A stretch of DNA of 26,281 nucleotides from an uncultured Candidatus Saccharibacteria bacterium (GTDB lineage: Bacteria > Patescibacteriota > Minisyncoccia > Sungbacterales > JACQCQ01): the NCBI GenBank assembly GCA_964579195.1, contig CAZOFN010000001.1:1-26281 (forward strand). Reading direction: 5' to 3'. Of the stretch, positions 15,591 through 16,759 are shown piece after piece. A program made the translations under genes and the position numbers. The notes beneath the pieces are model-generated. The model worked only from the letters and a program-made list of their open reading frames with translations, did no database searches and was not told the DNA's origin. Within the stretch, counting starts at the first letter, position 1; each line of letters opens with the position of its first letter.

Positions 15591-15648
15591 TCACCAGATA
15601 AATTTTCCGAAGGTGAGATCGAAGGTTCGATTCCCTCATTCCCCGTCC
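15591..15648 (+). pseudogene. Degenerate tRNA 3' half (Arg- or Gly-like), directly preceding the accessory array
   Basis: TCACC...TTCCGAA-GGTGA-GATC-GAAGG-TTCGATT-CCCTC-ATTCCCC-G, with one T-stem mismatch and extra bases in the anticodon loop. No convincing 5' half. Confidence 0.6.
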
Positions 15649-15703
15649 CGAAAAAAACAAGCACCCAAGCACTCAATTTTTATACGGATTGCTGGACATC
15701 GAA
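15643..15703. repeat. Unit-proximal repeat B, copy 1
   Basis: Ungapped 48/61 identity with 16699-16759 (hand alignment); core AATTTTTATAC...CTGGACATCGAA. Confidence 0.85.
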
Positions 15704-15753
15704 TCTGAAACCAACTTGTGGCCTTGGCGTCTTATCTGGTATAAGATACATCC

Positions 15754-16089
15754 ATGGAAAATACGCCTCGAAAAGGAAAATATCGCTGGATTGTGTTTAA
15801 AAAGGGCGCAGAATGGGTAGCTGCTGCTTTGGAGTTTAATATTGTCCAGATTGGCGATGACCCGAATGTGGTGTATCTCGAATTGGAAGAAGCGGTGAGG
15901 GGTTACATAGAAGCGGCCCAAAAAATAACTGGATTCCGTGAGAAAGCTATTAACCCAGTTCTGAATCAAGAGCCAGACGCAGAATCTGAAAGTCTTTGGA
16001 ATCAGGCTCAATCAACGACGCGAGAACCAGCAACTCCCCTCCCCGAGAATGTGTTTAACTTCGGTACTAGGAATTTAGTAACGGCGTAG
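15754..16089 (+). CDS. HicB-like antitoxin
   Basis: YRWIVFKKGAEWVAAALEFNIVQIGDD...ELEEAVRGYIE is a HicB-type N-terminal pattern; directly upstream of hicA. Confidence 0.72.
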   Translation: MENTPRKGKYRWIVFKKGAEWVAAALEFNIVQIGDDPNVVYLELEEAVRGYIEAAQKITGFREKAINPVLNQEPDAESESLWNQAQSTTREPATPLPENVFNFGTRNLVTA

Positions 16090-16093
16090 CGAT

Positions 16094-16336
16094 ATGCCGC
16101 GCGGTATTTCGAATTGGACGTTTCGCGACATCCAAGCGTTTTTACTGCAACGTGGTTTTACACTTCACCACGTGCGGGGAAGCCATCACTATTTTAAGAG
16201 ATATACCAACGACAGATTCTTTATGACGCATGTCCAGCATCATGGATCGAGATCTATTCCTGAAGGGACAATGAACGCTATCATTCGGCAGTCTGGAATT
16301 CCTAAAGAAGAGTGGGTTAGTTGGACAGAAGAATGA
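16094..16336 (+). CDS. HicA family toxin
   Basis: 80 aa with FLLQRGF...RGSHHYF and IPEGTMNAIIRQSGI. Confidence 0.9.
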   Translation: MPRGISNWTFRDIQAFLLQRGFTLHHVRGSHHYFKRYTNDRFFMTHVQHHGSRSIPEGTMNAIIRQSGIPKEEWVSWTEE

Positions 16337-16369
16337 AATTTGGGAACTCCCTTCCGGCAAATACGTAGG

Positions 16370-16392
16370 TTCTAAAGTCGTTCAACAACCGC
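16370..16392. repeat. Unit-distal repeat A, copy 1 (putative att site)
   Basis: TTCTAAAGTCGTTCAACAACCGC, exact. Confidence 0.95.
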
Positions 16393-16400
16393 CGCACTAC

Positions 16401-16429
16401 TTGACAGACAATATAATACGTGCTAGGGT
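16401..16429 (+). promoter_or_regulatory. Possible sigma70 promoter of unit 2
   Basis: TTGACA, 17 nt, TAGGGT with an extended -10 TG. Confidence 0.5.
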
Positions 16430-16435
16430 GTTTTT

Positions 16436-16602
16436 GCTGATAGCAGAAGCTCGGCTTCTGCCAGCACCCACCCCAGGGCACTATGTGCCCCATGCGTGAC
16501 GTACCGTATTCCTAAGGGGCCTATGGCTCCGCCTCATCCTTTCGGGGAATTGAGAATGGATACGGCCACGGACATCACGTGTGAGGTGGGCTTTTTCTTT
16601 TT
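16436..16602 (+). ncRNA. Unassigned ~165-nt structured RNA
   Basis: Stems 16443-16450/16454-16461, 16467-16472/16585-16590, 16476-16481/16485-16490, 16492-16502/16572-16582, 16504-16511/16558-16565 and 16516-16521/16525-16530, plus TCCT-TTCG-GGGA. Ends in CTTTTTCTTTTT; no credible plus-strand ORF. Confidence 0.55.
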
Positions 16603-16644
16603 CTCTAAAAAGACTTGGTAATTCTTTTTTAGTATATCTATAAG

Positions 16645-16699
16645 TTCTAAAGTCGTTCCCACCACCAGGCGAGGCTCGCCCGCGGGCGGCAACAACCGC
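16645..16699. repeat. Repeat A, copy 2, split by a 32-nt GC-rich insertion
   Basis: TTCTAAAGTCGTTC (16645-16658) + insertion (16659-16690) + AACAACCGC (16691-16699). Confidence 0.9.
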
Positions 16700-16759
16700 C
16701 GCCCCGAAAATCTCAAGCATTGAAGCATGGAATTTTTATACCGGTTACTGGACATCGAA
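16699..16759. repeat. Unit-proximal repeat B, copy 2
   Basis: Ungapped 48/61 identity with 15643-15703; abuts repeat A copy 2. Confidence 0.85.

Follow-up and report, generated by a model that had tools for sequence, protein, structure and literature searches.

Composite SCC islands of staphylococci depend on the CcrAB serine recombinases and lie at the 3' end of rlmH, and Xer-dependent elements include IMEX at dif and the pdif modules of Acinetobacter plasmids. Targeting of tRNA genes is usually tied to tyrosine integrases. CPR genomes are tiny and little is known of how they gain genes; searches of a literature library returned no paper on integron-like or cassette arrays in Patescibacteria (CPR), and none on serine recombinases at tRNAs in CPR. 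The array described here, from a CPR bacterium, shares features with each of these systems, and with integrons and tandem tRNA islands. Here the gain of genes cassette by cassette at a tRNA end can be read to the base, with both ends of the cassettes and an occupied and an empty site defined, but with no integrase of the sort normally implied by arrays of this kind.

A window of 26,281 nucleotides, the whole stretch of DNA analysed, was characterized. It is contig C1:1-26281 of an 822-kb genome (G000; 104 contigs, 51% GC, 95% complete) and carries the core genes dnaE, thrS, miaA, lepA, murJ, rnhB and mnmA. Coordinates without a contig refer to the window, and all parts of the array listed below are on the + strand. 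The array consists of units ending in a repeat, A (copies A1 to A5), two of which begin with a second repeat, B (copies B1 and B2). The stretch from tRNA-Ile to mnmA in which it lies measures 3.2 kb in G004, a Candidatus Sungiibacteriota groundwater MAG of the same family, where it has no A or B, 7.2 kb in the window and 19 kb in a second relative, G002; it is therefore a variable region.

A pseudo-tRNA-Trp fragment (15598-15645, a gapped alignment to tRNA-Trp positions 19-71) heads the array as the left partner of B1. Its terminal part (15624-15645) matches, at 22/22 bases, the 3' end of the tRNA-Trp(CCA) that this genome encodes on contig C16 (C16:532-553). ARAGORN calls no tRNA at 15598-15645, and the sole match in an Rfam search of the window was the adjacent tRNA-Ile(GAT) (15446-15518). 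A first-pass annotation of this DNA had noted a tRNA-like 3' end before B1; it is indeed tRNA sequence, but a decayed tRNA-Trp fragment and not the neighbouring tRNA-Ile. B1 (15643-15706) is followed by the cargo of unit 1 (15754-16336), comprising a HicB-like ORF (15754-16089), with no Pfam match and no record in an exact look-up of the protein, and a HicA toxin gene (16094-16336). A1 (16340-16395, core 16365-16395) forms the right end of this unit. The unit between A1 and A2 (16396-16614) is poor in ORFs, with none that convinces, and drew no Rfam hit at E up to 1; at its end are a hairpin-like stretch and a T run. In A2 (16615-16702) a GC-rich insertion of 31 nt (16659-16689) interrupts the core, and the last bases abut B2 (16699-16762). 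The cargo of unit 3 begins with a 257-aa membrane protein (16816-17589), followed by the T module (17618-17648; TTGACA, then a palindrome, then a T run) and geneX (17680-18390; 236 aa, weak receiver-domain match), and the unit ends in A3 (18395-18533), a long form with two hairpins and the core. Beyond A3 lie XRE and thioredoxin-type genes ending in A4 (21512-21539, core), and a second HicA pair (HicA gene 21913-22143) ending in A5 (22153-22209), the last array site, after which come DUF5679 and mnmA.

The tRNA-Ile beside the array has an unusual setting of its own. In the region 15304-15597, inverted repeats of 15 nt flank the intact tRNA-Ile, and the whole is nested within an outer, tRNA-Ile-like gene that is split around it and whose acceptor halves, GGGCGTG and CACGCTC, pair together. 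Upstream, in this region too, is a structured element of ~100 nt with two covarying hairpins, which recurs in G000 upstream of tRNA-Cys and tRNA-Thr (C27:5155-5241 and C40:6721-6828); this tRNA-Thr is also nested between outer tRNA halves. At the orthologous place G004 has a simple, uninterrupted tRNA-Ile.

A repeat search of the window aligned B1 and B2 over 64 nt, ungapped, with 50/64 identical bases (78%); the 61-nt ungapped repeat of the first-pass annotation (48/61) is the same pair, here extended. The two copies match each other at a blastn E of 4.7e-7, and there is no third copy in the 822-kb genome. A 29-nt degenerate pattern, built from B1 and B2 themselves, matches those two places only, with 0 matches expected from 100 shuffles. 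The first three bases of B1, CCG, are the end of the tRNA-Trp fragment, and B proper runs from 15646; the start of B2 coincides with the last bases of A2 (16690-16702), and B proper runs there from 16702. An independent Logan contig (X1 record 2, 15487-16396) crosses the junction of the fragment with B1. Outside support for the A2|B2 junction is weak, as the alignment of the single listed contig across it starts only ~12 nt away. Only two of the six unit starts in the window are headed by B, so that B cannot be an obligatory half-site. When the sequences after the other A copies in the window were examined for B-like starts, that after A5 alone was suggestive (p 0.015 before correction for 16 tests). 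The segment concerned (22210-22247) resembles the left part of B2 (GAAAA..TCT..GAAGCATG) and may be a third, decayed B.

Repeat A has a core of 28-31 nt and weaker conservation over ~57 nt. All five window copies are on the + strand and intergenic, four of them just downstream of a + strand gene; one more copy lies on C16 and others, in the same layout, in G004 and G002. Homology among the copies ends sharply after ...CAACAACCGC(CGC), from where each continues into different sequence. Copies of the long form have two further hairpins, in which three pairs are compensatory. A long copy in G002 carries an insertion of 60-70 nt at nearly the same point as the 31-nt insertion in A2, and GC-rich stretches similar to the latter occur elsewhere in G001, G002 and G026. 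Derivation of A from a diverged tRNA-Trp 3' half gained no clear support, the similarity not being significant in 12 of 14 comparisons; counted by eye from the sequences, 8-9 of the last 17 bases agree with the tRNA-Trp 3' end.

The tRNA-Trp loci of G000 (contigs C40 and C16), G002 (C3) and G004 (C41) are orthologous, having common flanking genes and the order tRNA-Leu/Thr/Trp, and allow an occupied site to be compared with an empty one. In G002 a hairpin sequence, here named the C-module, directly adjoins the end of tRNA-Trp. The G004 locus reads tRNA-Trp|B-T-geneX-A|C-module, with a B-like segment abutting an intact tRNA-Trp. Past the A|C-module junction, 13/13 bases are identical to the C-module of G002, after which homology continues with an internal deletion. 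Because G002 reads tRNA-Trp|C-module, the G004 locus contains a discrete 966-nt B...A unit that abuts the tRNA end precisely. Both junctions of this unit have CCGCC, as does the empty site. The first-pass annotation had put the crossover near a CCG shared by the two B copies; the break does fall at this CCG, and the occupied and empty loci extend the core to CCGCC.

B is thus found with three left partners (n = 3), always at the same junction position: the tRNA-Trp fragment (15645|15646), A2 (16701|16702) and the intact tRNA-Trp of G004. The C-module has the tRNA-Trp end as its left partner in G002 and an A end in G004. Since both ends join B and both join the unrelated C-module, the tRNA-Trp end and the A end are interchangeable left partners. 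Such an interchange at two different right partners is, judged from the sequences, the signature of site-specific recombination. The B core of G004 agrees with B2 at 19/23 bases, a score above that of all 2000 shuffles. At the columns in which B1 and B2 differ, the B of G004 sides with B2 at eight and with B1 at two, spread over the whole length; B is therefore not a mosaic, which places the break at or to the left of its edge. B2 leads into the geneX-A block, as does the B of G004, and this, together with the column agreement, identifies B2, the closer of the two copies, as the counterpart of the B of G004. Compared with the G004 arrangement, B1...A2 (15646-16701) intervenes between the tRNA-Trp relic and B2.

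The units led by B differ in cargo, which is HicBA in unit 1, the membrane protein and geneX in unit 3, geneX alone in G004 and a His-phosphatase-like gene in G002. A paralogue of geneX adjoins the intact tRNA-Trp locus on C16, and a search across the species genomes found a homologue in G004 only (54% protein identity). The geneX-A block of the window (17607-18534) is 82% identical to C16:8283-9214 (935 nt) and 69% identical to the G004 block. Downstream of tRNA-Trp, arrays containing A, B and T modules are present in three genera (C16 of G000, G002:C3 and G004:C41); the primary site is the tRNA-Trp 3' end in three genera of one family. Besides the B...A unit of G004, tRNA-Trp has received a serine-recombinase element in G000 and a mini-insert in G002, which marks it as an integration hot spot. 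The mini-insert (~380 nt, within G002:C3 (L027) 632-1085) encodes a 78-aa GIY-YIG protein directly after tRNA-Trp; its boundaries are marked by a repeat of the tRNA 3' end, 17 nt long and with a single mismatch.

We conclude, with a probability of roughly 0.6, that B is the conserved left end of a small family of B-to-A cassettes, whose site-specific insertion takes place at either of two ends, the tRNA-Trp 3' end and the end of an A copy that the array already contains. The left edge of B would be the recombination junction, with the core CCG|CC. The tRNA|B1 joint would then be the attL-like head of the array, and A2|B2 the joint of neighbouring units, which is also the sequence expected of an excised, circular B...A unit. 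Both geometries, an attL-like tRNA+B and a tandem B-A junction, had been proposed in the first-pass annotation and are borne out by the relatives, in that tRNA|B heads the array, the left edge of B behaves as a recombination junction and A2|B2 joins two units. The model would further involve a circular intermediate, a recombinase supplied in trans and possibly a part for B in recognition; B itself is a candidate recombinase recognition site. Logan contigs of four source-sample runs contained no excision or alternative joints. The host range would be a single family of Sungbacteria-like CPR bacteria: among the 62 genomes of the order, a sequence model of B matched in G000, G002 and G004 only, and exact-pattern scans, of A and B in viral contigs and of A in metagenome contigs, gave no match. 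The evidence on A and B comes from three genomes of one family, a very small sample.

The sharing of B could instead be passive. B would then be a passenger, either the native spacer or trailer of tRNA-Trp or a leader of the cargo, copied by segmental duplication or homologous exchange and with no role as a site. B-like sequence does directly follow an intact tRNA-Trp in G004, the geneX-A block of the window does have a paralogue at the tRNA-Trp locus (82% identity over 935 nt), and most unit starts do lack B. However, the junction falls at the identical base in three contexts, the exchange of tRNA-Trp end for A end recurs with a right partner unrelated to B, and the tRNA-Trp of G002 has no B, which shows that B is not a conserved native flank. 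We regard a passenger as unlikely.

Co-regulation of the downstream genes might also have kept the copies alike, B being a promoter-upstream sequence, an operator or a 5'-UTR. Both copies end 48-54 nt upstream of a start codon (15754 and 16816), and two AAGCA motifs lie within B, 8-9 nt apart. In G004 and G002 the B core stands directly before the TTGACA-palindrome T module, ~45 nt from a gene, an arrangement that points to the B core and the T module together as a cassette leader. The T module is present in five copies in the family's five genomes (window 17618-17648; C16:8294-8324 and 9634-9664; G002:C3:19430-19460; G004:C41:1823-1853), all of them within these arrays and ~45 nt upstream of a gene; it may act as terminator, operator or both. 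Against such a leader, the T module is absent after B1 and decayed after B2, a consensus scan found no sigma-70-type hexamer pair or terminator in or at B, and B has no significant fold on either strand. Regulation alone would, moreover, leave the sharp left junctions unexplained, and we judge it an improbable account of B. The B-like core of G002:C3 follows a Phd/ParE-like toxin-antitoxin pair, directly before the palindromic T module, and is without the left part of B. The first-pass annotation had expected B to be tied to A or to tRNAs throughout. This core, ~500 nt past an A copy, adjoins neither, which counts in part against that expectation and against B as a cassette left end, though it still lies within a tRNA-Trp-anchored array.

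The first-pass annotation had also read B on the minus strand as coding, in the same frame as its neighbours. The translations of both copies, and their continuation into GMRESNLR (copy 1) and RLL (copy 2), were reproduced exactly; the coding reading was not upheld, as B1 contains an in-frame stop and the codons differ by three synonymous and six nonsynonymous changes. Substitutions between B1 and B2 by codon position number 3/5/6, a pattern that does not point to coding, and B as a coding sequence was rejected. The related proposal, in which B would be the degraded 3' end of a recombinase gene formerly extending through the att site, has some basis in the habits of large serine recombinases of the class, the genes of which regularly end within a convergent tRNA (24 of 30 loci had a tRNA, with the stop inside it in 21 of the 24), and in the C16 recombinase, which reads tRNA-Trp antisense as GMRESNPR in the same frame as the GMRESNLR of B1. 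It is nevertheless very unlikely, given the stop and the codon differences, the one-in-three chance of a frame match, and the failure of a tail profile to find B. This nhmmer profile was made from the tRNA-proximal tails (15 regions) of related serine recombinases, the C16 tail being held out. It finds that tail (E 9e-6) and does not find B even at E 100, and B as a recombinase tail was rejected. Compared directly with the two closest tails, those of C16 and G106, B gave p values of 0.07-0.5, not significant, whereas those tails are strongly similar to each other.

The only integrase gene in G000 is the large serine recombinase gene on C16, which converges on the intact tRNA-Trp and runs antisense through it. 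The element (C16:556-8287) replaces the B-like spacer of G004, and neither of its ends is related to A or B. A recombinase gene stands beside the att site of this element (gene region C16:386-2165) and beside none of the B...A units. A search of G000 with Phage_integrase (PF00589) gave no match, and this search, the ends of the C16 element and the tail comparisons revealed no recombinase in G000 or its relatives that could be assigned to the B...A units. Three relatives have one tyrosine recombinase each (open frames of 310-357 aa), on contigs other than those of their arrays; we would guess these to be of the Xer type. No dyad symmetry above shuffles was found at A2|B2, at tRNA|B1 or at the tRNA|B of G004, in a test that had no working positive control, the reconstructed site of the C16 element also having none. 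Folding of the A core and of B as DNA, on both strands, was no better than shuffles in an attC-like search (z 0.13 to 1.20). As to the location of dif or the terminus, there was no lasting GC-skew switch: skew is positive nearly throughout the window and slightly below zero at 15-18 kb only.

Of 401 genomes sampled from the class, 175 have homologues of the large serine recombinase. In the 30 loci fetched (L028-L057) the stop within the tRNA is often 7-12 nt from its 3' end. Serine recombinase genes of the class read the T arm antisense as (D/E)SN(P/L), and the coding region of the tail includes a hairpin with a T run that resembles a terminator of the tRNA. In the locus of the homologue closest to the C16 recombinase (L029, G106:C4, 805-1023), an intact tRNA-Ser is followed by 72 nt and a second tRNA-Ser 3' half, spanning the anticodon arm to the end, which abuts the tail. 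Serine-recombinase elements of this type may carry a tRNA 3' half; a displaced tRNA-Asn fragment was not found at a related element in G001. The habit of serine recombinase genes in this class of ending in tRNA genes may matter more broadly.

A wider reading, which we put forward as tentative, is that the locus is a cassette-capture platform of a new kind. The tRNA-Trp 3' end would be its entry site, and self-promoted cassettes with a B left end and an A right end would be stacked by a non-integron recombinase, perhaps a tRNA-targeting large serine recombinase. The responsible enzyme, if found, would define a new site-specific system with short, defined substrates, A|B and the tRNA-Trp end.

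Among described systems, Xer-dependent modules resemble the array in being integrase-less, in often carrying toxin-antitoxin genes and in using 28-nt sites and a host recombinase, the A core being 28-31 nt. They differ in that neither A nor the junctions here have an 11-6-11 dyad (the test being the one without a positive control), all sites are direct and there is no GC-skew switch. Composite SCC islands also consist of recombinase-less tandem units at the 3' end of a conserved gene with short direct repeats between them, and serine recombinases are the main integrases of this lineage; in the present locus, however, no Ccr-like gene lies beside the array, the ends of the resident serine recombinase element are unrelated and the target is a tRNA. 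Tandem islands at tRNA 3' ends, which use tyrosine integrases (P4-like), share the tRNA anchor, seen here as insertion at the tRNA 3' end in the orthologous loci of G004 and G002, the accretion in direct orientation and the degenerate, integrase-less units. The boundary A, in contrast, resembles the tRNA 3' end too little to be recognised as a copy, no integrase is adjacent and the units are small, 0.3-3 kb.

Integron arrays offer a further parallel: small units in one orientation, many of them toxin-antitoxin cassettes, a conserved end site with a sharp right boundary, and a fixed entry at the head, with the old flank pushed behind the end site of the newcomer, as at the A|C-module of G004. 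Directly oriented units each ending in A are found in the window, in G002 and in G004. The differences are that there is no integron integrase, A and B have no attC-like hairpins, the junction core is CCGCC and not G|TTRRRY, a tRNA end serves as head site, and many units seem to have a TTGACA-type, promoter-like sequence right after the junction. Of these closest known systems, the locus departs in at least one defining property from integrons and from Xer-dependent elements, and probably from tRNA islands.
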